Assembly: GCF_963676685.1 (NCBI RefSeq)
Contig: NC_092347.1
Location: 70,642,935 to 70,706,934 of the forward strand
Reading direction: 5' to 3'
Source: Mytilus edulis
Lineage: Eukaryota
Length of the DNA: 64,000 nucleotides
Shown: positions 1,497 through 43,762 of the stretch, piece by piece
Layout: the number at the start of each line of letters is the position of its first letter
Position numbering within the stretch: the first letter of the stretch is position 1
The notes under the pieces: generated by a model
What the model saw: the letters and a program-made list of their open reading frames with translations, nothing else
The model's database searches: none
What the model was told of the DNA's origin: nothing
Made by a program: the position numbers and the translations under genes

Positions 1497-2879
1497 GAAT
1501 ATTCTGTAAAATTGCAATATAGAAATATAAAAAGATAGCCTGATTGATATATATTCTAGTCTTTCAGAACCGAAACGGAAGGATTTTACATGTTTCTTTA
1601 AATGCATTTTTCTTTCTTAAAAAGGCTTTTATTATAAAGTGAATCATGTAAAGTTCCAACTGAAAACTGTCTACATGATTACATCCATAAAAACAATTCT
1701 ATCATTATTTTTTGTCTGCAATGAAAAGAAAAACAAATGAGCAAGTCGCCATAAAAAGAGATTTAACCTATAGCCGCACAAGTTCAACGCGAAAGAGAAC
1801 ATCGTGTTTTCAAACCCCTCTTTTTTTTTAATTGGCATTCAAAGATGTTGGTCCGAGTGCCAAATTCAGGTTGGTTTTTTTTTTATTCCAAACAAAGGCT
1901 TCTAAAATAAATGAAGTATTTGCTATAGTTGGCGTAGGTAAACACCAATGAATGAATTGAATGTGTCATAATTGTTTTTTTCCATCAATATTTACAAAAA
2001 AGAAAAAGCTCAAGTGGATAAAGAAAGATGTACTACATGTTTGACTAATTAAATAAAAAAAAAAGTAAAACACAAGGAATAAGTGATTTATTCCACAACA
2101 TAATCAAGATGTTGAAAGAAATAAAGTCTATCACTCAGATATCTGTGATAATATACAATTTTGTCTTTTTTTTCTGCTTAAAAAAAAACTTCAAATCTCT
2201 TAATTGAAGGAAAAACTGCAACAAGTGTGCCCATTTTCAGATCTTCCAATTTAAAATCAGACAATGTTGCCCAAATAGGACTGCCAAAAAAATTTGTGTC
2301 TACAAATACGTAAAAAAAAACCAATATCATATCAATAAAAGACTATTTCTCATTCTAATTCGATATGTGTAAGAATTTATAACATGGTGAAGGACATTTC
2401 TGTGCGAGATAATCAGGCAATTGGCATAATTGAAAAGAAGGGGGAAATGAGAGTCTATGCAAGTTCAAAGGGGAAAGGGGGGGGGCAACAAATGACTCTT
2501 ATGATGATTTATTACGTTTTTACACAATGTTTGCTTTATACCGCTGGTCGATATGAAACCCTCAGATAACTTATAATTAGAATATAAAGAGATGGGGTAC
2601 ATGTACGAATGCAAATGAAACAACTTTCCATCTGAGTCGAAATGAGACGGATTTGAGCAACTATGGGTCTCCGTAAGGCCTTCAGTACATAATGAGCAAA
2701 ACCCATATCTTTCCGTGGAAACGCTTTTTTCTACCTTCTTCAAGTCCCTTCGAGTCAATTGTATGTCACAATTTGAAGAACAAAATATTCACGTCCAGCA
2801 CATGCAGCATTGCCGCCAGCTGTCACGTAATCAACTGTATATATATATATATATATAATCCCTTATGTTGCATCTTCAA

Positions 2880-3200
2880 GTTGAATACCCAGACAACATG
2901 AGTATGTTGGCCCAACATTGGCACAACGTATATCATTGCATTGGCCCATCGTTGTATTTTAACGTTGGCCCAACGTATAAGTGCAAAGTGGGCCTACGTT
3001 GGCCCAACATGATGGCTTCATGTTGGCCCAACGTTGTACGGTTATATGCAATACATAGAGCCAACGTTGGCCCATTGTATGAAAAACGAAATCCATGTTG
3101 GCACAACGTTGGACCAACGTAGCGATATATTTTTTCTTATGTTGGCACTATGTTGGTCCAAGGTAGGTATTTCTCATTTTTGTGTTGGCAATACGTTGGT
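2880..3200. repeat. Degenerate array of the same GTTGGCCCAACGTTGG palindromic motif
   Basis: More than 12 variants of 'atgttggcccaacgttg' occur at irregular spacing of 20-40 bp. A single copy of 'caacgttgggccagcattggcccaacat' lies at 5120-5150. (TA)n of about 30 bp lies at 2830-2860. Confidence 0.6.
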
Positions 3201-5379
3201 ATATTGCTTCAACCAAATTGCAATGGATGCTGCATTAAGAGCTGTATATGATAAATACTCCGGAGCGCATTTGATCTTTTTTTGTATTCCAAACTGCCAA
3301 AGTTTAAGGTAGCAATTCTGTATTTTTGTATTACCCATTGTTGTTACTGTCCTTGTTTTTTTCATGAACTTTGCCTCTTTAATTTTATTTATTGTGTGAC
3401 GCTAAGATATTTCTTTGACAATGTTTGATGGATCGACCAGATAAACTCTGTGTTATTTGGTATCTTGTAAAGACTTGTCTCATTAGCAATCATACCACAT
3501 CTTCTTTTTTCATATAAATTTCATTTATTTCTTTAACAGAACAAATGACGTATGGCTTATGGTTAGGCGATCATACAAATAGTTTTTTCGGAGATGTAAT
3601 TTTAGTTGTATTGGTTCCAGATCCAGAATGAAAATTAAATAATTCAGAAGATGAAACTTTATTTATTTTAAATTTGATATCATTGGTCGTCACCACGAGT
3701 AGTGTCCTCCTCAATTTGAACTTCAACAGTGTCATTATTACTTATATATGTTATTCTTTTTTTCCCTTCTGTATTTCTTGCCACCTTCTCAGTCAAGGCT
3801 TAAGTGCCGCCAATCTTTAGCTGCATCATCTATCTCCTTATCCGAAGACTATTTACAGCTATGTTTTTTTTCTAACCGACTCTGTAATAAAGTTATAAGT
3901 AAACTTGAATTGCGTATTTGTCTAATGCATGCGTGCGTAATCTCCCTTCTAGATATGTAATATAAATTAATTTATATTCTAAATAGTTTAAACACTATTT
4001 AATACAAAATCAAATCTTAAATAACCAATTTTTTATATATTGGTTATTTGTCTAATTGTCAGAAATTCATTAGTATTAGACGGATTTGTGGGTATAACAA
4101 ACCCTTATTACTTTTATTTCAGAATTCGGTATCATACTTTATATATTCGTAATATACATGATATATAAAGAATAATTTAGATGTGTATTAATGAACAGTT
4201 ATATATTTGATATATAAAAACACTGTTACACATTCAAGTGTGTATATGATCAGGTTTCACAAATATATCGTATCTGTTTGCATGCGATTTAGAAATACAA
4301 TAAAACTAACAAATTCATTTATATTTTAATGAAGTAGAAATCATTATACCACATTTTTGAAACATTACGGAATAAGGTACATCTTAAGACAATTTTATTC
4401 CATTAACTTCAGTAATGATCATACATGTTGTGGTTATAGATTTATATAATTTACCATTTGTTTGAAGATACTAATGTTCAGTGGCAACTATTTCATGATA
4501 ATTAATAGGATTGAAATGATTTAAAATCTAGAAAATATTTCGCCCAAAACGTAGGAACTTTAAGATCAGCATTATAAAATGATAGAAATTAATATATGTT
4601 TTGATATTTAATAACATCCCTCAGATTAAAAAATCATATTGTATTTGTCATTCTGAATCGTATATATATCAGATTTTTTAAAGTTACAACTTACATGTTA
4701 CTATCTTTCTCTTTGAATCTCAGATGATATGATTTTCTCTTTTTGTTTTCTTCGTATCACTGCTTTCTTACAAATACACAACAGGAAATAATCACAAAAG
4801 TGACCATCCCATTACATTCAGATTTCCGATAAACTTGATTACCATAGCAACTATCTTTGAAATTTGTCGAACATATGGTCAACCTTATCAGAATGGGCTT
4901 GATTAACAGACTGGCTGTATCAAATATCACTCTGCATATAATTGCTATTATTATGTTTCACAAAGTTTAATGAATAAAGTTATTATAAATAATGATTGCA
5001 ATAAATTTTAATTTTTAACCAGGCAATCTATGTTTACGGTATTTTTTTTATTACAGTAATGATATTCCAGTATAAATTTTATCTGACTTATATATAGAGT
5101 ATAATATATGATCACGCAACGTTGGGCCAGCATTGGCCCAACATAGAGTTGTAAATGTAATTTCAGTTGATAAACACTGTCGGTATAACATTAACTTTTC
5201 ACTAAGCCTGCTGCAATCGAAATTATCCGCCTCCCAAGAGAAATAAAGCGTAAAATATTATATAATCAATTCTATTAACAAAATTTCATATCGGCCCTAT
5301 GTTGCTACTAACATAATGCCAACATTTGCCCGATTATTTATAACCAACATGAGATAATAATATGAATTTACAACAACAG

Positions 5380-5640
5380 ACCAACGTTTGGCCAATGTTG
5401 TGCAGCCGACACCAACGTGCGACCAATGTACCGACAATTTGCCAACGTTGGGCCAATGTTGTGTAGCCAACATAAACTTGCGACCAACGGACCGACAATT
5501 TGCCAACGTTGGGCCAATGTTGTGCAGCCAACATAAACTTGCGACCAACGGACCGACAATTTGCCAACGTTTGGCCAATGTTGTGAAGCCAACACCAACG
5601 GTCGACCAACGGGCCGACCATTTGCCAACGTTGGCCCACT
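5380..5640. repeat. 60-bp-period satellite array of about 4.5 units built on the palindromic core CCAACGTTGG(G)CCAA
   Basis: Head-to-tail units of 'caatttgccaacgttgggccaatgttgtgcagccaacataaacttgcgaccaacggaccga' at 5385, 5445, 5505 and 5565. A degenerate leader occupies 5290-5380. The overlapping ORFs 5297..5645 on both strands are artefacts of the periodicity. Confidence 0.8.
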
Positions 5641-5721
5641 GTTAGTCTGCTGACTGGGTATTAACTATTATTTTACATAAATCAATTTTCCCATATCAGT
5701 AACTTCTCAGTCTACAGATCT

Positions 5722-5815
5722 TAGCATGGGTTCGAATCCCGGCGAGGGAAGAACCAAAAATTTGCGAAAGCAAATTTACAGATCTAACATTGTTGGGTTG
5801 TTGTTTAGACGAGTT
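5722..5815 (+). mobile_element. Partial SINE copy (B-box to tail) in inverted orientation to the 5845-6000 copy
   Basis: This 94-bp stretch is the reverse complement of 5845-5938 with a single mismatch. The two copies are separated by a 29-bp AT-rich spacer. Confidence 0.6.
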
Positions 5816-5844
5816 GTTTATATATATTGTTTATATATAAATAT

Positions 5845-6000
5845 AACTCGTCTAAACATCAACCCAACAATGTTAGATCTGTAAATTTGCTTTCGCAAAT
5901 TTTTGGTTCTTCCCTCGCCGGGATTCGAACCCATGCTACTATGATATCGTGACACCAAATCGCCTGCACTGCAGCCGTCCCGCTAGACCACACGACCACC
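5845..6000 (-). mobile_element. tRNA-derived SINE, full-length copy with a tRNA-like head
   Basis: On the minus strand the sequence reads GGTGGTCGTGTGGTCTAGCGGGAC...CATGGGTTCGAATCCCGGCGAGGG. It has an A-box-like TGGTCTAGCGG, a perfect B-box GGTTCGAATCC, a tRNA-unrelated body, and a tail 'aatttgcgaaagcaaatttacagatctaacattgttggg'. Related copies lie at 5722-5815, about 6100-6150 and about 43763-43895. Confidence 0.6.
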
Positions 6001-8070
6001 TGTACAAGTAAGTCTGAACCAGTTACAACTCTATGTGGGATTGTATCTATGGGATCACCAGTGATGGTGATACAAGGCTGAAGTCACATTCTGTATATAA
6101 ATTCGTCTAAATATCAGCCCAACATGTTATAGATCTGAAAATTTGCGGAAGTATTTATATATATACACGGGTTCCACATTTCCTTAGGTATTCGGATCCC
6201 TTCCTCTGCATGGATATAGGAATAAGTAAATTATTTCGTACATTTTCGAAAATGTGCATTTTTTAAATTTCAAATTTAAAAAAACCCGCATCTAAACAAA
6301 TTGAGTTTAGGGGTCAGCTGAATAAAATTATTTCGTACATTTTGTACGTGAACGGATGCGGGATTTTCTTGCTGTGTGAACCTTTTCTTCCCTTTGTTCG
6401 GGTTGTTGTCTCTTTGAAACATTCCCCATTTGCATTCTCAATTGTATCTGGTTTCATTGAGAAAATCGTTACCGTTTAAAAATAGATATCATAAACATAA
6501 AGGCGAAATCAAAAATAAATTAGTCGCAGATGCATGTATAGAAACAACAACATGTTTAACAGGAAATAAACAACCTACCACAAAACACTATACAGGAAAG
6601 TAATGAAAATTAATTGTTAAAAGTCATTATTCATTTAAATTTAACAACATAGGTACATGAAAATTGGACTACCAAAAGCATAGGTACATGCAAATTGGAC
6701 TACCAAAAATTTAGCTCTCTGTCCTACGAGGAGTCTAGGATTGCATAAGAAAAAGCGTTTTACATGGTGACGTATAGTTTTAAATTATAGAAAAAATAAA
6801 TATAACCATTTAGTTAGTGAGCATGCCTTGAATCAGAGTCATATCTAGACATATAAGTTTTTGTTTCAAGGTGTAAATTCGGTTACCATCATAATGGTAT
6901 ACTACTCTTTGTACGTGCTTTCTGTAATCATGATACTAGTTTTATCATTTGTTTTGTTCGGTTTATGAATGTTAAATAGTATAATTGTATTGTATTTGTC
7001 ACTTTATCGGCTTTATGTCATGCTTTGACTAGGAAAAGAGATGACATGCTCAGATTTCAAATATATTTTTGTTATTTGACATTTTTTTCCTGGAAATATA
7101 ATTGTCTGTTCCGGGCTGTACTGCTGTTATACTATGTGAATATAATTCTTTTCGTATTGATCGAATCGGATGCAACAGTTGGACAAGTTTCTACTTTTAA
7201 AATTTGAATTTCACACGCAACTATTAGTTTGCCATATGTTGATGTTCGTCATAATTTTTCATATTAAATGTCGTCATAATTTTATACCATCACACATATA
7301 CATATATCATTTTCTTTTGAAATGCGACATTGACCATATATGGGTTGTTTACTCGTATTATATTCTGCTTCAATTTCGTATTTAATTTGTTTATTACTAG
7401 AATATACTACAGCATTTAAAAACATCGAGGGATGGAAGATAAGAGAAAAAGCACTCTACCCATGTCTGTTTATTAACTTCTGAAATATCATCTGGCGGTG
7501 ATTCGCGTATATTCCATCCGTATTTAATATATACCCAAAATACAAAACATGAAAATACCGACTTAATCCAGTCAAAATACGATAAACACAATAATCAAAA
7601 TATAATAGTGAGTTTTTTCGATAATGTTAATGATCAAGTAGATTTAGCAGTAAAAAAAACTATCTTTAAAAGTAAAAAAATAACACACTGTTTTGAGAAA
7701 TTAGTTCGAACTTCAGAATTATTCTGTGTCAGCCATCTCTCTAAATACCACTTTGGTCTATAACCCCTTTTTTCACCCCGTACAACTCATTATTTGCAAG
7801 TTGATGATAAAGATGTGGTGGTTCTGTTCAATGGGTCACGAGAAAAATGTGACATAAAGATTTGTTTCTGGACTGACAAGTTATTTACAATATAGCCCTA
7901 CCTTTAGAGAGGGTATATTATTTTGTTTCTTGTAAACACTGAGACAAAGCTTTATGTTCGATATGTATATTCGGTATTGGTTCCTTTTATTCTTTTGGGC
8001 GTTCAATTTTCGAACAAAATTTTATGTCAAAATCTGAGACAAAATTGTTCCTATACATGTAGAATGGTAA

Positions 8071-8857: not shown

Positions 8858-10534
8858 ATTGTCTCTTATCAATTTCAGTATTCAGTACCTGTTTTTTTAT
8901 TTCAGATATTTGTTTCTTCCGAGACTGTGTATGGTTATTCCACATAGAGAGATTTTGAAATAATGACATCATTTATATATACGAACTAACACTGACGTCT
9001 CTATGTTTTACTATAAAAGAAACTTTATTGGAACTAAATATTACACTATACTATATTAGTCCAGAGACATAATAATATACATGTATATACATGCATAGTC
9101 TTATGTCCAGTCACCGTCCTATTACTTAAATGCATGGTTTTGCACTTTTAGATAAGCCAGTCAAGTTTGTTAAAAACTTCCATTTGTTGTCTTTTAGATA
9201 TTTTCTTGCATCTGGTGACCGAATGCTCACATAAATGCATATCTAGTCGCCGATAATATTTGACTGACAAAAAAAAACAACGTATAAAAACCTTGTACAC
9301 ATGGTCATGAATTGTTTGAGAGTAGTGTGCCAATAAGCTGGCCAAATTAAACTGAACTTAGCCAATATATTATAATTTGGGGAAAGATGATTAGCCTACA
9401 CCCCTGTCCAATGGCATTAATACCATCTAATGATCTACCATGAGCATCAAATACAGTATACCATCTAAGGCCACCTAACATGTCCCGTCTTGTGACAGTC
9501 GGTGATAAATAAAGGCAGCAGTAATTTAACACAAAGAACCAATCTCTTAAATTCGATCCGTTGCTTAAGATAGATTCGTCATCTAACAGACCAACATTTT
9601 GTAAGCAATTGGCAATATTAAATTGGTTAATATAAGTTTTAATATATTCTTATGGACTTCGACCCCTTCACATGCAGGCAACGCCTGTCTCATATATATA
9701 CATGTATATATATAGATATACTATAAAAATAAATAGAACACAGACTGACATAAAATTGAGAGTGAAAATGGGGAATGTGTCAAAGAGACTGACAACAACC
9801 AGACCAAAGATCAGAAAACAACACAAGACCATCAATGACCAATGGGTCTTCAACATAGCGAGAAAATGAAATGTCAGAAGAAAACATATCATAGTAGTGA
9901 AATCAATCTAAATCTCAGCCCTCCCCCTTAATTTTCCATTTTCCGATTGCAATCCCCGCCTTTGAAAATTGGATGTTAAAGAATGGGCTCACAAACATAC
10001 AACGGGAACCAGAAAAAGTACAAATACAACCAAAAAAGACCCCCCCCCCCCCCCAAAAAAAAAAAAAAAAAAAAGAATAAAAGAAAAAAAACCAATAAAA
10101 ATATTTTTTTGTTAATCAATTCAAGGATTTAGTAATACTAAAGAAATCCTTGAACAATTTCGCATATTTTCGTCGGTAAATTTTAAATTAGGGTCAATTT
10201 TTTAATTGTTTTTTTAATTGCTTTTAGTTTGTATTTGTATTGTTAAATTGTTTTTATGTTATGTTGGTTTGAAAAATCTTTAACGAACCCCTTTTTCTGG
10301 CTCCACCCATTTGATATCTGCCACTCCTTTTCAGGCTTTTGTGAGCAGACGGCATCCTTGTATTTCGTTGAAAATGCTTTCATTATTTAAACATATTATT
10401 TTGTAAATTACTATAACCCAAATAATCTCAGATTGAAACTTCCTTACCAATATTTTCTAGTGCTGTGAGAAAAAATTCAGCAAAAACTCTACGGACAAAA
10501 GTACTGTCAACTTTGAACTTTCACCTGCATACGG

Positions 10535-15642: not shown

Positions 15643-16557
15643 ATGCCGAAGGCCATAAAGCAGAAATGGGGGCCAATTGGATACATGGCATAGAAAGAAA
15701 CCCAATTTTTAAAATTGCTGATGACAATAATTTGCTAGAATTGAGACATGGCAATAAAGGTCTTCGTAATAAAACATCCTTTATAATGGAAAATGGAGAG
15801 GAAGTAACTGAAAAAATAGTCAATCAAGTAAATTTGAACTATGGGCAACTAATTATGCAAGCAGAGGATTTTTATCAAAATGGTATGCCCACAATGGAAG
15901 AAAATGATAGTGTTGGGGCATTTCTGGAACGTGAATATGAAGACACTTTGGAACGATATACAAATGGTGACCGTCATATTAGAGAATTGTTGTTTGATCA
16001 GCGAAAAAGGCTAGAGTGTTGTATATCTGGCTGTGATTCATTGTCAGAGGTTTCTTTGAGTGAGTTTGGAAGTTACGAAGAACTACCAGGTGTTCATTAT
16101 ACAATCCCACCCGGTTTTACTGCAGTTTTAGAAATCCTAAAAAGTAGTATCCCAAAGGAAAATATTTTACTCAATCATCCAGTCAAATGTATACGATGGA
16201 ATAGACAATTTCCTGATCCAGAAAAAAATGTTTATGAATGTTGTGTTGAATGTGAAAACGGTGAAAAATTCTATGCAAATCACGTAATATGTACTGTTTC
16301 ACTAGGTGTTTTAAAAGCTGCATGTGATAGGATGTTTAACCCACCATTGCCTAAAATGAAATTAGATGCAATAGATGCAGTTGGATTTGGCATTGTAGAC
16401 AAAGTTATTATTCAGTTTGATGAACCAGTGACAGAGCCAGAATTGTTCCGTGTAGAACTTGTGTGGGACAATGATCTCATTGAAATGAATGATCTGCGAC
16501 ACACGTGGTATCGTAAAATATACTCCTTTGAAGTGGTACATGACAATGTTTTAGTTG
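15643..16557 (+). CDS. Polyamine/spermine oxidase-like, coding exon 2 (about 305 codons)
   Basis: Acceptor tttttcag| immediately upstream. Splicing from exon 1 in phase 1 gives ...VNLG|DAEGHKAEMGANWIHG..., and GANWIHG is the conserved substrate-binding motif of SMOX/PAOX. The long open frame in AT-rich DNA (ORF 15666..16574) includes VICTVSLGVLK, which matches the SMOX/PAOX 'VTVSLGVLK' motif. The exon ends at donor G|GTGAGT at 16558 in phase 1. The start coordinate is uncertain by about 1 bp. Confidence 0.85.
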
Positions 16558-17524
16558 GTGAGTATAATTGTTAAAGTGGCATTGGTGCTATCTGGACTGT
16601 CTTTTTTTGCTTAGATTGTATCAACGATTGAGTAATGAAATTTTTGAAGTTTACAGGGTTCTCACTATACATGTATAGTACATAGAGTCCAAGTGCCATG
16701 GACAAATCTTTTTCAAAACTGGTTAAAAAATATCAATATGTAAGTATCACTGTTGTTGCTTCATCAGTTCATAATATATACATGATATTATATATATATA
16801 TGTATAAAATACACTTTTGGAATTATTAGATGTATCAATGAGGGCTGTACATGTTATCCCGATTGGCTGTATCTAATATAATTTACACCAAGATATTAAG
16901 GTTGATACAAAAGTTTGATTTTTGATACTTTAGGAGAAGGATCTTGCAGCAAATTTATGATGAAAGCAAGATAAATGCAGGATATCCAATACATGTAATA
17001 TAACAACACCTCGGTTAAAAATTACATTTTTGTACTTGCATACTTTATTGTAGTACTACATTTTGTACATGTAATGAAGTCTTAATGAACATGAACATAC
17101 AATGTATATAGACAATGTAAAATTAGGAGGCCAACATCAGTTTGTTTTGACCAGTTATATTAACTTTTCGTGTTCATCCACATGCATACATGTATCTGAG
17201 AAAGAGAAATGTATTGAACGCTTTTTCTTTGTGGAGAGCTTTGTGTAAATATTTCTTTTTCAGATAATATTTATTAAGTTCTATTATTATCATGATTATT
17301 ATTTATTTGTTACCATGGTACATTTGTTACAGAACAAAATCAATAGTTACCAGGTGCTACAAATGTATTTGTACATGTACATAGTATATATGAATACATT
17401 TACATGTAGGTATACACAAAAAAAACTTGTGATTCTACCCACCTAGCTTGAACATGTTGAAGAATTCTGGGCCCTCAAGTGACCTATACATAGCTATTTT
17501 AAAGAGATACAAATGTAAGTTGGT

Positions 17525-17665: not shown

Positions 17666-19950
17666 TTCTTTATATACTGCAACTCTTATAACTGTTCAAA
17701 ATGAAGTATTTAGGGTAAAAAAACGTCATTCTTTAATTGTGAGCGGACAACGTAAAATTGCCGCGAACCTGTATGTTTTATTGACGTCATAAATAAAACT
17801 CTTTGGAAACACATTGTCAACGTCATAAACAAGGTGATATAAATGTAGTCAGTGACTGTATATCACATATGAATATATACGGTCAATGCAATTTGACTGC
17901 TCAAATAGCACAGCTGCAGTATATAACAACTTACAATATCATGATATACATTTGTGTTACAACCAACCCAACTAGCCCTATTTTTTGTAGATAATTAACA
18001 CGCATTTATTAAGGGTAAACTGTTCAAAGCAGTATAAAGAAAAAAAGGCAAAAAAAAAAAACCCCAATGCCTGTTTTTCTTCTTGTTCTTAACTTTGAAA
18101 ATATATATATGTGATCCTATTTTGAAGAGAAAAGTTTGTTTCCGAAGTTAGTAATATGATGAGAAAATGATCTGATCAGCTTTTTCTATGTAAATGTACA
18201 TGTACATGTACAGCACTAAATGATGTACATGTATGTGTTTTTCTGTTACATGTTACTTTTGCAAGTGTACATTATGGTAGATCTAGCATGCCAGTACTGT
18301 TCTTCACCCTTGTATTGAATTTAGAATGATTTATTACTGTCCAGGTTCAACTGGTACTTTAATATATACAATGTATCATGTATATATTCGTTTCATTCAT
18401 TGTATACATCCATCAATAATTACAAAGGACAAGCCCATCTCGGCCAGGTCTCTGACAATTTCAAAGCTAGCTTTCAAATTATATATAAAAGAGAGAAATA
18501 AAAAGGAAAGGTTGATTGCAGAAAATATGTAAAGCAATGACTCAACAGATTATGTTGATCCTCTCAGACAGCATGCAGTGAAAACGATTAACTTTTAAGG
18601 TGAAGGGATGGTTAGAAATGTAAAGTAATATATATATACATGTGGAAAGAAAACATATTTGTCTCTGAGGACAGTAACCTGTGATTTGTCCTTGTTTGAC
18701 ATCATGAAAACTGTGCAGTGTAGTATCGATAAAACTTATATATATACTCTCACTCAGTAAGTTAATCTACCTTCAATGTGAATGTTTCTCTTACAGTAGC
18801 TGAAGTCTTAAATCTTAGCTTATCCATATTTTGTGAAATTGATATTGTTGAAGTATTATGAATTGATTGTTTGAGAATCTTAAATTTGCATTTTTACTTT
18901 ACAATTGTGTGTGTGTGCATAGATCATTACATGTATAAATGACTTTTCAATTTTAAGGGCATCCCCAGTCTGTAGAATTACAAAAGGTAAAGAGTTCATT
19001 GGCCGGTCAGTTTTCAGTCAATAGGTTAATTCATGTCTTCTGTATCGATTATAATGAAGATTCAGTGTAGCATTTGCCTTCTTTCAATTGCAGCGGTCAA
19101 TAAACTTTTTGCACTATCCTAACCTTGGGTGATGTTGATCATTTTGTGAAGAGCAAGTTGTTTTCTGTCTTGCCCAAATGCAGTTAATGATTTTTCTATT
19201 CCCAATTTACAACAAGTATTTTTCCACTTAGTACGATTTTTTAATTAACTTCATCTTGAGACACTGAAGAGAGTTTTGGAAGCTAAGTTTGATTGTAGCT
19301 ATAAGCATGGCCACATACATCTTATTACAATTTATGTTATAAATCTAATATACTGTACTGGTCATGGTTTATGTCGTTTGTAAATTTGACTTCTTTTTCC
19401 TAATAATTCTTTTGTCATTTCTAATGTCATGTGAATGTGTTTGATTTGAATTGAAATTTTCAATTTTGAATGGCTGAATGTTTACAACTTTTGTTGTGTC
19501 AAAAGAACTATGTATGCATGTTTCATTTCACGGTCGTGATGTCACTCCAGTCATACATGTACCTTGAAAACAAAATTTATGCATTTGACATCCAACATTG
19601 TTACATCTAGTTCATGGCAAATTTGCCAGCAGATCTAGATATATATATGATATTGGGATTGCTGTTGTGTATCTCTTGTCTGTTATGAAAATCTATACCT
19701 ATGTGCATCTACAAGTTCTGCTTAGGCAAAAGAAGGTGTGAATTAATAAACATTACACAACTAGTACATGTATTCAGCAATTAAAAAAAAAAAATTTTTT
19801 ATGACCCTGCTGCTGCGAAGGGGGCATTAAGTGTAACCCTTGGCCTTGTCCATATGTCTCAATATTATTTTCTGTTCTCTAAGTAACTTTAGATATCAAT
19901 ACTTGTGTATGATATTTATTCTATTGATTGTAAGGTGTATATATAAAAAA

Positions 19951-20230
19951 GATGTGGTATGATTGCCAATGAGACAACTTTCCACAAGACACCGTCACCA
20001 AAATGACACAGACATTAACAACTATAGGTCACTGTACGGCCTTCAACAAGGAACAAAGCCCATACCGCATAGTCAACCATGAAAGGCCCTGAAATGACAA
20101 TGTAAACAATTCAAACGAGAAAACTAACAGCCTAATTTATGTACAAAAAATGAATGAAAAACAAATATGAAAACAAACACATAAATAAACGACAACCATT
20201 AAATTACAGGCTCCTGACTTGGGACTGTCC
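19951..20230. repeat. Interspersed repeat of the 'gatgtggtatgattgccaatgagacaac...' family
   Basis: Related copies lie at 22245-22375, 43485-43640, 51290-51360 and 60590-60860. Bivalve genomes are known to carry abundant short non-autonomous elements, but I cannot confirm that this is one of them without a repeat library. Confidence 0.45.
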
Positions 20231-21719: not shown

Positions 21720-24700
21720 GTACATGTAGCAATATGTTTCAAACAATTATTTATGTTAACTTGCACTTTACAAACATTTACATGATCCTATATTACTGTG
21801 ACCCCTGTTTTTTTTTAATCATGCATATTATATGTTTATTCAAGTTATTGATTGAAGCACTGATTGACATGTCATTTGATTGACAGACAAATACTCCCTC
21901 AACCAGAGATTGTATTGACTATACATTATCATAAGGATGGTCATAATTTTTGATTTCTTTAATTTAAGTGGCGGAACATGTACAGGTTGTGGGTTCCAGA
22001 GGTTGGATTTTTTTTGGCGATCAATTTTGAATGGTGACACATGGTTTGAACCCCCCTCCCTTATGCTGGGTTGAGAACCCCCTTATGAAAATGGTTGTAT
22101 CCACCCCTGAGTTTTGACATCATCTACATGATCTAGACTTGTTGTAATCTTTCATAATTGGGCCGACTTGGCACCTAGATAGAAACTTTTTAGTCATTTC
22201 CCATTGGTTCTTCTATTTATGTATTTCAGGTATACTTATAAATGGTATGATTGCAAATGAGACAACTCTCAGCTACCATAGACTTAGTTAACAACAAAAT
22301 GCCGCCATATGTCCTTCATAACAATGAATAAAACCAATACCGCATAGTCAGCTCTTAAAGGCCCCAAATTTGTATATTCGATATCAATTTTAAATTCTTC
22401 AATCCCTCCCTTTATCTGTCACTAGGGTTGTACGTGACGTGGAACATATACTTTTATTCATGGTTAAAAGGTGAGATAATACAGTGTGTTGGGTTTTTCT
22501 ACCTATCTTTTTTTATCACTCTTTTCCCACACCCCCTTCAATGAATTTTAGTAACATTGAATAACCTGTAACAAGTGTTAAACCTGTAGACAGGTAAAAA
22601 TACTCAGACTTTTGATGTTGTAATGAGATATTTAACAGTTACAAAAGGTATTTCCTGTACAAGCCTTAAAAATCAGCCGATCAGTAGACAAGCTTGAATG
22701 AGATTCATATCCCTGAATCAAGTTTCTCAAATATTCACATATTTAAGATTTTACTCAGGTCTTAGTATTGATTGTTGAAATATATGTGTAAAGATTTTTT
22801 TTCATTTTCAATTGCAAAAAATAAAGATTAGATGACACAAGATTAAACAAGTGAATCACTAGGAACTGATGATTATTGGGTAATTGATTTGTGATTCATG
22901 TATATTTTAATCAGATCAGGTTTTAGAATTTGTATGATTCATCTTTTCTTCAAGTGTTGATGAGAGAATGTATATACCCAAAAGCATTATGTATGTCCTT
23001 AGACAAGCATACATGGTTGTGTTTAAATGTTTTACAGATATATAGTCAAAGTTTAATTAAAATATAAACTGTGGACTTGTTTGCCTTAGTGAATGATAAA
23101 TACATGTAAATACCTTTACAAAGAAGTATTATAATATAAATAAGATATTAAGTATATTTGATAGAGTGCATATGAAACCGCACATTATTAAAATTCTGTC
23201 GGTTTGTCAAAGTCATCGTAATGCACTCGTTTCGCTCAATGACTTAAAGCACTCAGTTTAAAACAATTTACATCTTACTTCAATAGGGAAAATCTAAAAA
23301 CAAAACAACAATAAACAATAAACAATAAACAAACAAAGCAAGTAAAGTAAGACTATGAAATGAACCAAAATGTGTCATTTAAAAATAAAAGTTTGTCAAT
23401 TGGACAAATGTCTCTAAATCTATATTTTTCCATAATTAGTCCATAATAATTGGAAATGAATAATAAGATTTGATTATAATATTTTTGTCATAGGAAAGTT
23501 ACTTAATACAGCCAAGAAATAAAAATTTAGGTGCATATTCTTTTTCATTTCTATTTGTATGAATATTGTAACTTTTTGATAATATATGAAATAGAAGATA
23601 CATATATATATATTTCTCTAATTCTTCGTCAATTTATCCCTTTCTGCACCCGTTGTATAATAATTTTTAATCACCTTGTGGTTTGTTTGTTCTCAGTTCT
23701 TCATTGGTTAAAATACGATTATGATGTTTTATTTTTTTGCTTTCTTCTGAATTTCCTATTGTGATGGCATGAAAAAAGGCGACCGCCAAGCCTCGCGTTT
23801 TAAATTTGAAAATTTAACCGTCTCGAGTGGATAAATATCGTATCACACTCGATGACGTGGTAGAATCTACATATATTTAGATCTAACTCTGTCTCAATAT
23901 ACATCAGTTTTGTTTAATCTTAATGATTGAAAACGTAATACATTTATGTCATTATAAGCTTCATTTGGCTTTCAATGATCAATAATCCATCATTTTAAAT
24001 GCATTATAAGCTGTCAAATTCATTACCACCTAATTGACTTAAACTGTAAGCTTGAATAGTTAAGATAAATTATAATATATTACAGCAAAAAAAAAGACTT
24101 ATAAGCCAGGGCCAGGACAAACAGTGCAATACCCTCTTGGGTAGTCAAGGTTGTTAAACCTTCGTGTTAAACACACATGTAGTAATGGTATTCCCAAACC
24201 AGTAAGACCTTACTATACATTAATTTGCCTTTTCTAAATTAGAAAACTCTATGGTGGTTATCTTTGTTAATATCTAAATGTCTGAACCTGGAGCAATTCA
24301 TATGGACTAACATTATATGTCTGGACCTAAAGCATTTAAAATCTGACCCATCTGGACTAATGTTATCCACTTGTCTATTGTTGAATATTGTATAATGACC
24401 TTTTGAATTAGATGTCTTATTGCATGGTCATTTAGGCATACTTTACATACATCTCAGTTCATACATATTTAATCGTAGATATTTCATACATTTAACTTCT
24501 CTGGGAGCATATTTCTATGTATAAAGGCAATCTAGATAAGAGACAGAAGACTTGTTATGTCTCGTAGTTCGTGACAACTAATGTTACATTTACATTTTGT
24601 AAGTGGCTTCTAATGTCCCCATCTTAAGAACTGGGGAAGGCCTTCTAGACATTTGCCAATTGCAGCTTGAAGCACACATATAAATTTGTATAATCTGGGT

Positions 24701-32649: not shown

Positions 32650-33375
32650 TGTGATTTAGGCCACTTCACCTATGTCTGTCAGTCCCATTAACATATAGGC
32701 CACTTCACCTATGTATGTCAGTCCCATTGACATATAGGCCACTTCACCTATGTCTGTCAGTCCCATTGACATATAGGCCACTTCACCTATGTCTATCAGT
32801 CCCATTGCCATATAGGCCACTTCACCTATGTTTATCAGTCCCATTGACATAGGCCACTTCACCTATGTCTATCTGTCCCATTGACCTATAGGCCACTTCA
32901 CCTATGTCTGTCAGTCCCATTGACCTATAGGCCACTTCACCTATGTCTGTCAGTCCCATTGACCTATAGGCCACTTCACCTATGTCTATCAGTTCCATTG
33001 ACCTATAGGCCACTTCACCTATGTCTGTCAGTCCCATTGACCTATAGGCCACTTCACCTATGTCTATCAGTCCCATTGACCTATAGGCCACTTCACCTAT
33101 GTCTGTCAGTCCCATTGACCTATAGGCCACTTCACATATGTCTATCAATCCCATTGACATATAGGCCACTTCACCTATGTCTGTCAGTCCCATTGACCTA
33201 TAGGCCACTTCACAAGTCTGTCAGTCCCATTGACATATAGGCCACTTCACCTATGTCTATCAGTCCCATTGACATATAGGCCACTTCACCTATGTCTGTC
33301 AGTCCTATTGACATATAGGCCACTTCACCTATGTCTATCAGTCCCATTGACCTATAGGCCACTTCACCTATGTCT
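32650..33375. repeat. 39-bp-period minisatellite of about 18.5 units
   Basis: The unit gccacttcacctatgtctgtcagtcccattgac(a/c)tatag is repeated head-to-tail with sporadic substitutions (ctgtc/ctatc, gacat/gacct). Because the period is a multiple of 3, ORFs 32656..33240 are open on both strands and are artefacts. Confidence 0.85.
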
Positions 33376-36300
33376 ATCATTTGTCACTTGTTAAAGTGTC
33401 AATTTCAATAGCACACACTAATTATATTTTTTTTTAAATGCTGTATAGACTATTTGCTACCTCTAGTTGTCGAGGCTTCGACTTTAGTCGAAAAAGCGAG
33501 ACTAAGCGAGACTACATTCAGTCGTCGGTGTCGTTGGCGGCGTCCACAAATATTCACTCTGTGGTTAAAGTTTTTAAAATTTTAATAACTTTCTTAAACT
33601 ATCCTGGGTTTGTACCAAACTTGGACAGAAGCTTAATTATGATCATAAAATAGTATCCAGAAGTAAATTTTGTAAAAAAAATAATTCATTTTTTCAGTAT
33701 TTTACTTTTAAATGGACTTATATTTTCTTCCAGTTAACCATACATACATGTACAGTCTGCAGTTGTTTTTAAAACATTTATTAGATTCATAAACTATCCT
33801 GGATTTTAACCAAACTTGGACAGAACATTACAATCAAAAGATTGTATCAAGGGGAATATTTGATTGAGTTTCTTCCTCATTTTTGTTGAGCCTTTGATTT
33901 ACAGCAAAAGTAGGCGAGACACTGGGTTCCGCGGAACCCTTACAATTTTTTTTTGATATTTTGACTTAAAGATGTTCAGGGTTTGATCAATTAGGTATGA
34001 CATTGTTCTTTATTTCTACACCTATGGTCTAAAAGTGTTTTGCTTAGGTATGATAAACAAGAAGACAGATGTGTAGAATGTTACAGTCTGACACCTGTAC
34101 CCTGTTAGGTTCTATGATATATGTAGTACATTTCTTTAAACTGACATATTACGGTCAGGACTTCTGTTTCTGAGGTGTGAGTTAATGAGTTTTGGGTCAA
34201 TTTGTATCTATATATGGTGTAAAAATTTATATATAACAATTTACTAAAGGAGGCTTACAACATGTACAACATATGTCTCAATTGATCAACAGTAAAACCT
34301 GTTACAAGAGCCTGCAAATCTTGTGCCAAGGCCACAATTAAAAATATTTTGGTTTGCACCCTACCCAAGGTTGAGACAATGGGTAGGTAGGTAGGCATTT
34401 TCTTTTTTTTTCTTTTTTTTAAAGAAATTGAAGTATCAGATGTTTATTAGTCTTCATGCCTATCTGATTAAAAAAAAACATCTTCAAATCAGGACAATAA
34501 AGAATTTGAGTAGGCAGCTTTTTTCTGGGTAGGTAGGGTTTGGGCAAACAAACCTATTCTTTTTTATGGCCCAATCAGTTCAAATTGTTTGAGGGCCAAT
34601 AGGCAACACAAACAAAAGTTTTGATGATTTTCACTTAGTCAATGCATAATTCATTATTCCTTCATTCCTCTATATAACTTTCATCCATCTCCTTTAAATA
34701 TTGAATTTGGTGGAAAATTTTGACAAACTAAAGTGTTATATTCATAGCTGATGGTTTAATGGTGTAAAATTGATGCTAATAATATGTTTTGGTCAGAACA
34801 GGCTTCTGAAAACCAATCCTTGATATAGTGCATTAGTGGGTAGAAAAGTTATCTTCAGGAAATTCTGACTTAATCATGTGCTTGAAAACCTGTTGTAAAA
34901 AGAAGTAAAAATTAAGACCCTGACTTCCTTTTCAATTACACTTTTGTTTTGGTCAGACACTGGATTCTTTTGTATATACATGTAGCTAGCATATTCCCCT
35001 TCTTGACCTTGAAGATAAACAAATATGTTTCAGGCTGTACATAGTTTTATTTGCCAATGTCAACAAATATCCACTTACATTTTATGAAAAGAAATCTATG
35101 TATTTTGAAATTGATTTCTCTTTTGAAACTAAACAATAACAATGATTAGACATATACTATTCACACAGTGTGAAATATATATATTTATTAAAACACTTGA
35201 CCTCGATCTAATAATAAAGATTATGCGAAACCAATACCAGTGCCAATCAATAATATCAAAATTGTATCTGACACAACATGTGATGTTAAAAGTTAGAATA
35301 TACATATTTGAAAGTAAAATTTCATTTCTATTACTTCATAATATATTGGATAATGAAGTTATGACCTAGTTTTTTTGACTTGTTGATGATGTGTTGTGAA
35401 ATATGAAGATTTAAATGTTTGTCATGACGTCAACAGTCCCAGTTACCAGACAAACAATTCTGCGTACATGTAATGGGGTGGGCTAAGTACATTTCTAAGT
35501 ATTAAATCAAGTTTATGTTTATTTGTCCTTGCTCAAACTTCCTCATGCTTGTTCTTTTATTTAAAACTTTAAAATCTTAATTAAATTATGACATATAAAT
35601 TACGTTCAAAAGGAAATATTCATCTGTTAGCAGGATGCTATGTGATCATCGATTTTTACTCCTACACTGGATTAGTAACAGTGAAAACGTTCATTACTAT
35701 AACAAAGATTGCACCACATTTTTGTGGCATCTGTTAAGGTGTGGGGTTAATGTTTGTGTCTCTTACGAATTTAAATATTCCTTTGTCCTAGTATTTTTAA
35801 ATCAGAGCGTTTCATAAATTTATGATTCAATTTTATCATTGTTGCTTGGTTCAAATCAGTCCTTGGAAACACACTTGAGTTCTGTAATTATTAGTAACCA
35901 GAATCAGGCATGACTTAATTGAAATGCAACAGGAAAACAAGGAAATTGTGGATTACTTGGAAAAAGACATAAAAATATACCTGTATAGGAAATCAGATAA
36001 TTTTGGTTCATTGATTTTTGTTTTTCTTTATTTTAAAATATGTAGTATGTTTAAGTTAGAGGAAGACATGCTTTTGATGGTCATGTTTTGAACAGGAAGA
36101 GACCGACTGAATAAACAGGATAAACCTGTATAAACAATTCTCCCTTCCCTTTGTCAGCATAGTAAAGCTCAAGAGTACATGAATTGTTTATTAGTTTCAA
36201 GTTAATGTGTTGTAGCTTTTCCTAGAATTTGAATTTTCCACAAAAATGGTGGTATTGATTATGGATAAAACTTATGAATCTAATTATATAATATATTGAC

Positions 36301-43202: not shown

Positions 43203-43762
43203 GTGAGAGAGATTATTATGAAACCTAAATCAATAAAAGAAGTGAATCTCAGGATATGAGAAATTTTGACCCACTTATTGATTGTTGTACTGTAAATACA
43301 GAAATCATTGCGTGCATTTCTTATTGCAGTTTTGTCATTTTAGACTTAAATGAGATTTTAACTTTTATGAATTTTGAGAAAAATCCTGTTTTAATTCATA
43401 TAAAATATTTCAAAATATCTGTCGCATTTTTTGCAATAGTAAAAACCTTGCAATAATTTCCGAATTTACAGTATATAGAAATAAGAAGATGTGGTATGTG
43501 TGTCAGTGAGACAACCTTCCATCCAAGTCACAATTTGTAAAAATTAACAATTACATGTCAAAGTACCCACTTCAACTCTAAGTCTTGACTCACACCAAAC
43601 AGCAAGCCATAATGACACTTGAACAGGCAAAGCTTGATTAAGGTCCAGTTGCTAATATTAAATATTCAGCATGAGATCAATTAAACAAACTATCAAACAA
43701 AAAGGTATAAAAATGTAGGTCTGCTGGAATGGAGCTTGGGAAGTTGTGTCTGGACTGCAAAT

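Follow-up and report, generated by a model that had tools for sequence, protein, structure and literature searches.

A stretch of 64,000 nucleotides of the Mytilus edulis genome (contig NC_092347.1, positions 70,642,935 to 70,706,934; hereafter the window, numbered from its first letter) contains two clusters of a short palindromic repeat, one of them partly arranged as a tandem array. These clusters are very probably the left and right subterminal repeat regions of a single non-autonomous cut-and-paste DNA transposon, which occupies 2888-5658 and belongs to the CMC (CACTA/Mirage/Chapaev) group, animal TRC type. The boundaries of the element, its family, the type of its transposase, and the conservation and end-proximal position of its motif are established in this analysis. 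A previous sequence-only reading had presented the clusters as a satellite, while suggesting that they might be the eroded ends of one larger element bracketing 3200-5100. The single element stands; its ends, however, are not eroded but are ordinary subterminal repeat regions. The satellite heading has to be abandoned in view of the defined terminal inverted repeats (TIRs) and target-site duplication, only the 61-bp block being tandem, as a 4-copy local amplification.

Within the window, whose GC content is about 0.32, the palindrome CCAACGTTGG occurs 12 times with at most one mismatch, against 0.83 expected, a count reached in none of 100 shuffles; 11 of these 12 matches fall within 2912-5634. 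With up to two mismatches, GTTGGCCCAAC gives 34 matches against 7.2 expected, 28 of them within 2906-5640. Counted as TTGGNCCAA (at most one mismatch), there are 10 sites in 2880-3215 and 7 in 5100-5665, which gives the two clusters a density of about 19 sites per kb; the rest of the window has 0.46 per kb, an approximately 40-fold difference. The earlier count of more than 12 scattered variants at 2880-3200 was roughly right: once looser variants at 2987, 3141, 3184 and 3195 are added, the left cluster (2901-3200) holds about 13 copies. The irregular spacings in this cluster (11, 23, 24, 34, 24, 44, 31, 11 and 44) indicate that it is not tandem. On the right, the isolated inverted pair noted at 5120-5150 is present at 5116-5144. 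Tandem Repeats Finder reports a tandem array of period 61 at 5381-5643 (4.3 copies, 89% matches), a repeat search of the window returns four copies at a spacing of 61, and GCCAACGTTGGGCCAATGTTG is found at 5441-5461 and 5502-5522. The regular array previously described at 5380-5640 therefore exists, with a period of 61 rather than 60. No further copy of the 61-bp unit was found in the window or in any fetched locus, and on these data the array is private to the window copy.

Underlying both clusters is a shorter period. Lag 11 gives the highest autocorrelation of the left cluster (0.377; mean 0.255); for the right cluster lag 61 ranks first (0.83) and lag 11 second (0.457), and the lag-11 peak is absent from the element interior. 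The helical-turn spacing proposed in the sequence-only reading is therefore real, as is the dyad symmetry of the motif, which reappears in the logo described below, and the 61-bp unit amounts to about 5.5 degenerate 11-bp units. The basic repeat of 11 bp alternates between two palindromes, CCAACGTTGG and GTTGG-C-CCAAC. The central base is C in 8 of the 10 left sites and G in the two intact sites of the 61-bp unit (5452 and 5513), from which it follows that the two clusters are largely inverted relative to each other. Many copies carry CpG-to-TpG/CpA decay, and some read GGCCAAT.

The TIRs, about 11 bp long, are below the reach of a blastn self-comparison and were located by pattern search and multi-copy comparison. 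At two mismatches or fewer, the family terminus has 11 matches on both strands of the 64 kb, two of which are the ends of the element, in the right places and orientations. When the left region is aligned to the reverse complement of the right, similarity runs outward past the motifs to AGTTGAATACCCAGAC / AGTTAATACCCAGTC, and the right-end terminus is also present in two of the related loci described below, L010 and L074. The insertion target is A/T-rich, as it is for most relatives. If the element arrived by a single insertion, the empty site would read ...GTTGAATA followed directly by TTAACT..., with one TA. An assignment to piggyBac, considered for a TTAA near the right end, was dropped, the flanks of other copies not being TTAA. 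A (TA)10 microsatellite lies at 2838-2857, 30 bp upstream of the insertion site.

A tblastn search found no remnant of the family transposase in the window, and the interior of the element holds only short open reading frames (ORFs); to judge from its sequence, the window copy is therefore non-autonomous. The ORFs overlapping the clusters are artefacts, as had been supposed: none has a Pfam match near threshold, and for the minus-strand array ORF at 5337-5639 a search of a 5.8-billion protein set gave 122 word candidates, none of which scored. Scans of the window for tRNAs and against Rfam gave no match. The interior also contains, at 3459-3516, a short dispersed repeat of about 58 bp that is found again at 19938-19993, 22243-22269 and 43472-43514, the copies being 84-93% identical to one another. 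It may be part of a different mobile element, either nested in the transposon or taken up by it.

Relatives of the element were sought by scanning metagenome contigs for two TTGGCCCAAC within 14-44 bp, which returned 120 loci. More than 20 of these are AT-rich, eukaryote-like contigs with the same motif clusters at one or both ends. In these relatives the cluster stops 10-25 bp before a common terminus, ...TG(C/T)TNNCTGGG, and the termini read CCCAG...CTGGG. Complete miniature copies with clusters at both ends are found in L063 (about 300 bp), L067 (about 360 bp) and L081 (about 490 bp). Up to and including ...GGCTGGG, four loci of a single sample (L003, L009, L079 and L100) are almost identical, and beyond it they are unrelated, which fixes the boundary exactly; the first bases of contigs L125 and L127 are CCCAGCCAACA, and L125 and L126 differ in their 3' flanks directly after CTGGG. 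The two arrays of the window had been suspected of belonging together, and such clusters do occur jointly, at both ends of L063, L067, L081, L107 and L130. Flanking dinucleotides match in four of five complete copies (L063 CA, L067 AA, L081 TT, window TA), and a 3-bp flank match occurs in none of them.

Several relatives carry local arrays of their own. The right end of L130 contains an 11-bp tandem repeat, CCCAACGTTGG, in 32.7 copies, with higher-order periods of 24, 43, 44, 57 and 77 bp, and its clusters are nearly pure CCCAACGTTGG; L084 has a 27-bp unit repeated four times, L062 a unit of about 48 bp and L026 one of about 42 bp. Tandem amplification thus recurs in the subterminal regions with differing periods, and the 61-bp block of the window is one more case. 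Many of the 120 loci are unrelated to the family: L072 and L088 are collagen-like coding repeats, L110 is a 33-bp satellite, and L002 and L054 contain another repeat. A different family of miniature inverted-repeat transposable elements was seen in the JAAUYA metagenome (L045 1-320, L017 1160-1423, L020 1200-1506), with TIRs of about 45 bp (CACCCTGGGTTAGCAGAAATTAATGCACCCGTTGGGCCACAGGAAG) and internal CAGGTTGGGCCAA repeats, and has a TTGGGCCAA core in common with the family studied here. Neither a 21-mer from the 61-bp unit nor the ideal dimer of the motif had a match in the viral contigs scanned (0 each); among bacterial and archaeal genomes the ideal dimer was found at one site, in a GC-rich Acidobacteriota contig, which is unrelated or a chance match.

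Four of the related loci, L107 (9.4 kb), L122, L124 and L130 (12.6 kb), are autonomous copies of 9-13 kb, in which the terminus and motif clusters surround an ORF of 680-700 amino acids. In L107, the terminus CCCAGCCAACA lies at 329 and its inverse at 9702, with a single-exon ORF of 680 amino acids between them. The transposases of L122, L124 and L130 are 65%, 52% and 43% identical to that of L107, and the CCCAG terminus and motif clusters are again present. Against Pfam, the L107 ORF matches Transposase_21/tnp2 (24.9 bits, cut-off 28.6, E 1.3e-5), DUF1258 (20.5 bits, cut-off 33.1, E 3.8e-4) and DUF4218 (13.4 bits, cut-off 27, E 0.07). It has more than 1600 homologues, the few named ones being 'transposase domain-containing' proteins of a sea cucumber and a fish. 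An alignment of 20 homologues (39-68% identity) shows invariant D188, D266, C285-x2-C288, H484-x3-H488 and E508. This corresponds to the D-D-CxxC-HxxxH-E arrangement that defines the EnSpm/Mirage/Chapaev/Transib group (PMC12730594), and thus to the CMC signature.

Structure prediction points the same way. An AlphaFold model of the L107 transposase (mean pLDDT 81.7) has as its best Foldseek matches RAG1, amphioxus ProtoRAG (BbRAGL) and HzTransib (E 8e-9 to 4e-6, probability 1.0, TM 0.26-0.51), although sequence identity to these proteins is only 10-14%; a profile search of the transposase against PDB sequences gave nothing significant. Residues ~550-677 of the same protein (P0118) form a predicted C-terminal beta-rich domain, which Foldseek matches locally to the BAH domain of BAHCC1 (probability 0.99, 113 columns). 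In the model, this domain could be a chromatin-reading module on the transposase.

Among described elements, the closest are the animal TRC transposons, SmTRC1 of Schistosoma mansoni and its relatives in Aedes aegypti and Tribolium castaneum, which have a Transposase_21 ORF, TIRs starting with CCC, and 2-bp flanking repeats in 7 of 14 copies (DeMarco et al. 2006, PMC1636069). Our family agrees in its Transposase_21-like ORF, its CCC termini, its 2-bp repeats and the autonomous size of about 9 kb. The Aedes element is 9.2 kb long and has a 10-bp TIR, CCCAGTCAAC (PMC1636069), which is nearly the same as CCCAGACAACA, CCCAGTCAGCA and CCCAGCCAACA here; short TIRs starting with CCC are found at both ends of the window element (CCCAGACAACA, and CCCAGTCAGCA on the reverse strand) and in more than 20 relatives. 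SmTRC1 also has an internal tandem-repeat region (PMC1636069). It differs in its 54-bp TIR and in its internal motif, which is unrelated; subterminal repeats are not named as such in that report (PMC1636069), and the host here is a bivalve and the copy non-autonomous. The 11-bp dyad CAACGTTGGSCCAACGTTG did not appear in a full-text search of papers, where matches to the motif strings were all primers or unrelated sequences. The sub-threshold DUF1258 match (E 3.8e-4, weaker than that to tnp2) is also suggestive of Mirage, a group that includes Caenorhabditis elements and to which this Pfam domain corresponds, close to Transposase_21/CACTA (PMC3985635). Within the CMC group, the family may belong to Mirage, to EnSpm or to another branch.

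The autonomous copies contain a second gene as well. L107 and L122 are collinear across the entire element and have in common five conserved coding blocks downstream of the transposase. Joined together, these blocks give a weak match to DUF4806 (E 0.0019). The N-terminal block reads YAVVEFTDDxSVEVxPCxW...CxWPPYRNERL. In L107, L122, L130 and the fragment L026, the final exon (...VKLWLRYAVDRSGGR...; ...KLWLRYAxDRSGGR; WLRYAxDRxGGR) comes about 130-440 bp inward of the right subterminal cluster. Coordinates of this gene and of the parts of the window element are collected in Table 1.

Table 1. Parts of the window element and of the second gene of its autonomous relatives (window positions unless a locus is named)
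Feature	Position	Strand	Remarks
Left putative 2-bp target-site duplication	2886-2887		TA, directly outside both termini
Whole element, 2771 bp	2888-5658	+	Inverted termini CCCAG...CTGGG; boundary from multi-copy comparison in relatives
Left terminal inverted repeat CCCAGACAACA	2888-2898	+	9/11 match to reverse complement of right end; 13 bp outside first motif
Left subterminal region	2899-3206	+	~10-13 degenerate dyad copies (A/C)(C/T)GTTGGCCCAAC(G/A)T, several as 11-bp-spaced pairs
AT-rich non-coding interior	3207-5115		Short ORFs only
Innermost motif pair of right subterminal region (GCAACGTTGGGCCAGCATTGGCCCAACAT)	5116-5144	+	
Strongly degenerate motif copies preceding array	5283-5380	+	Repeat families and sequence inspection
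61-bp tandem array	5381-5643	+	4.3 copies, ~5.5 degenerate 11-bp units each, centre mostly G
Right terminal inverted repeat	5648-5658	-	TGCTGACTGGG on +, CCCAGTCAGCA on -; 15 bp outside last motif
Right putative 2-bp target-site duplication	5659-5660		TA
Second gene, conserved blocks in L107	6844-7044, 5875-6111, 3704-3943, 2971-3141, 2183-2348	-	Span 2183-7044
Second gene in L122	12695-19404		
Second gene in L130	16743-16862		
Second gene in L026	794-949		

A logo built from 148 sites at 25 ends reads CAACGTTGG[C/G]CCAACGTTG, with a centre of C (0.43) or G (0.44); the two being equally frequent, the site is a true dyad without polarity. Flanking positions outside the retrieval pattern are still conserved as AACG...CGTT (A 0.72, C 0.67 and G 0.72 on one side, with the mirror image on the other). 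In the commonest variants CG is replaced by TG or CA, the change that CpG decay would produce in old copies. Elements with transposases no more than 43-52% identical still have the motif in common, while no alignment of their spacers is possible. Since it persists at 43% transposase identity where the spacers do not, and is confined to a few hundred bp by the termini, the motif appears to be a cis-acting protein-binding site rather than a neutral repeat, and we infer that it is bound by a protein encoded by the element.

In En/Spm and other plant CACTA elements, subterminal repeat regions are bound by TNPA. By analogy, the motif sites, set on an 11-bp register within about 300-550 bp of the terminus, are probably cis-acting landing pads. 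An autonomous copy would provide in trans a dimeric protein encoded by the element, which would coat both ends in helical register and pair them, and the DDE transposase would then cut at the CCCAG/CTGGG termini. The part of this protein in synapsis is proposed on the same analogy; it may be the transposase itself, through its helical N-terminal domain, or else the protein made from the conserved second gene. The 61-bp array probably arose by tandem duplication of about 5.5 motif units inside the right subterminal region. More tentatively, and as a possibility rather than a probability, the family may represent a distinct and widespread animal CMC/TRC clade. Across transposases 43-68% identical, its members would have in common that both ends carry one perfect dyad of 19 bp (CAACGTTGG-S-CCAACGTTG) in an 11-bp register, and that a multi-exon DUF4806-like second gene is conserved. 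The product of that gene, and not the transposase, may read the arrays as a dimer. If so, this product would be an animal functional counterpart of plant TNPA.

The likeness to plant CACTA elements extends to their layout. These elements have short TIRs and, at each end, a few hundred bp with direct and inverted copies of a motif of about 12 bp; autonomous copies encode a transposase and a second multi-exon gene, and non-autonomous derivatives keep the ends only. Subterminal direct and inverted copies of a short motif, the CACTA hallmark, are present in the window element and in its autonomous relatives, and the latter share with En/Spm a two-gene layout with motif-filled ends. En/Spm differs in having CACTA rather than CCCAG termini, a 3-bp rather than a 2-bp duplication and an unrelated motif, the perfect dyad on an 11-bp register belonging to the present family, whose second gene (with its weak DUF4806 match) has no detected similarity to TNPA. 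An assignment to CACTA sensu stricto (En/Spm) was therefore rejected, the termini being CCCAG/CTGGG instead of CACTA...TAGTG and 3-bp flanks never matching. Mirage elements are credited with 2-bp duplications. Transib elements, close as their transposase is to ours in predicted structure, have 5-bp duplications, heptamer/nonamer-like TIRs and no motif arrays. Tandem-repeat-carrying elements of bivalves (pearl/CvA, DTC84 and MgE) are regarded as Helitron/Helentron-related; they resemble the window element in placing a short tandem array, a plausible satellite seed, inside a bivalve mobile element, and are set apart, going by their general description, by having neither CCCAG TIRs nor the dyad motif.

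We weighed four other explanations of the clusters. They could be a free-standing satellite family, made of a 61-bp monomer and a decayed older array, that merely happens to sit here: part of the sequence is tandem (4.3 copies at 89%), the 61-bp unit itself has no counterpart in the fetched loci, and bivalve genomes contain many short scattered satellite arrays. We nevertheless consider this very unlikely. Inverted termini and a TA/TA duplication enclose the arrays, and the clusters of more than 20 relatives lie without exception against the same terminus, flanking a transposase gene in four loci. Besides, the left cluster is not tandem, the 4.3 copies span only 263 bp inside the transposon, and the tandem period varies between copies (24-77 bp), which is what local amplification would produce. 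The same dyad, with its ACGT core, TTGG/CCAA half-sites, helical phase and occasional GGCCAAT, might instead mark a host cis-regulatory module, a set of sites for a dimeric host transcription factor (ACGT-core bZIP-like, or with CCAAT-box or NFI-like half-sites). Such a module would have to lie inside a mobile element, mirrored at both ends, and to reappear with the same architecture at unrelated insertion sites in other organisms; there is no gene start apparent nearby, and the CpG-to-TpG/CpA decay of many copies means that the sites are not maintained here, all of which makes a host function most improbable. Readings of the motif by eye as THAP or NFI sites were dropped, the spacing not fitting.

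The idea of a structural DNA element for hairpin or cruciform formation, to which the hairpin-forming monomers of the sequence-only reading come close, draws on the left cluster, where 2901-3037 folds far better than its shuffles (-33.9 kcal/mol, z = -5.7). This single-strand folding advantage, however, follows automatically from a repeated palindrome and is a by-product of it; the 61-bp unit (z = -1.9) and its dimer (z = -1.6) are unremarkable, and the family keeps the sequence of the motif, not its pairing partners, with spacers that vary freely. Hairpin formation thus adds nothing beyond the palindromic motif, and we regard it as extremely improbable as an explanation. The remaining question is whether the transposon belongs to another superfamily with 2-bp duplications or subterminal repeats (the ISL2EU/PIF-Harbinger group, hAT, P or Mutator). 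Duplications of 2 bp are also ascribed to ISL2EU, and subterminal repeats are found in hAT and P elements; moreover, the window copy encodes nothing, and its class rests on relatives. Yet the sole transposase found between these termini is tnp2/Mirage-like, with a fold like that of RAG1/Transib and the CxxC/HxxxH signature. The Pfam matches of ORFs between the termini include no domain of Harbinger type (DDE_Tnp_4), of hAT or of P, and the fold match to Hermes is far weaker (E ~5e-4, TM 0.17). With a terminus almost identical to the Aedes TRC TIR (PMC1636069), membership of any of these superfamilies has very little to recommend it.

A number of observations weigh against the assignment to a CMC transposon of TRC type. 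The interior of the window element shows no similarity to the autonomous relatives by blastn or tblastx, and the window copy is therefore not a simple deletion derivative of these; in addition, the 64-kb window has no second copy and no autonomous copy, and the relatives come from metagenome contigs. The 2-bp duplication fails in L107/L126 (AT against AG), and most flanks are A/T-rich, so that a 2-bp match is expected by chance about once in four per copy, in a sample of five. All Pfam matches of the L107 ORF, though mutually consistent, are under the curated gathering scores; these low scores are offset by the catalytic signature and the fold. Most CMCT lineages share 5'-CA..TG-3' termini (PMC12730594), whereas the termini here are CCCAG. 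As for the motif, the core of the logo is biased by the retrieval pattern (TTGGCCCAAC twice), and protein binding to it is inferred. Finally, L122 and L130 do not have the closing GGG at their right ends. In these two copies, both assembled from long reads, the last 2-4 bases of the terminus are missing (L122 19850-19880, …TTTGGC followed by AAG; L130 17400-17431, …GCTATCTG followed by AAAA; instead of …CTGGG), and they may be terminally deleted, immobile copies.

The feature is real and of a well-known kind, and nothing in it would surprise a transposon specialist. For annotation, one transposon insertion (2888-5658) replaces a 'satellite' and several spurious ORFs. The element is also a clear bivalve example of CACTA-style subterminal arrays of putative binding sites in an animal transposon. 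To our knowledge, end recognition by animal CMC elements has hardly been studied, and the conserved dyad motif and second gene offer a handle on it. A short tandem array generated inside a subterminal region bears on the idea that many scattered mollusc satellites begin in transposons; that such arrays repeatedly seed short satellites in bivalve genomes is a possibility.

Other features of the window were noted in passing. At 5722-5938, 64 bp downstream of the right end of the transposon, lies a near-perfect hairpin with two 106-nt arms, 96% complementary, and a 5-nt loop. Its arms each start with a tRNA-like B-box (GGTTCGAATCCCGG, ~5730-5745), and ARAGORN calls no tRNA there; it looks like a foldback or a palindrome derived from a short interspersed nuclear element. 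The largest tandem array of the window is at 32657-33379 (39-bp unit, 18.6 copies, 93% matches) and yields a spurious ORF of 128 amino acids. A long exon at 15666-16574 encodes a spermine/polyamine oxidase (amine oxidase, PF01593), from which the host can be recognized as a bivalve mollusc: its best named relatives are proteins of the bivalves Tegillarca granosa and Mizuhopecten yessoensis (71-74% identity), and its identity to an unnamed Logan/ENA protein is 91%.

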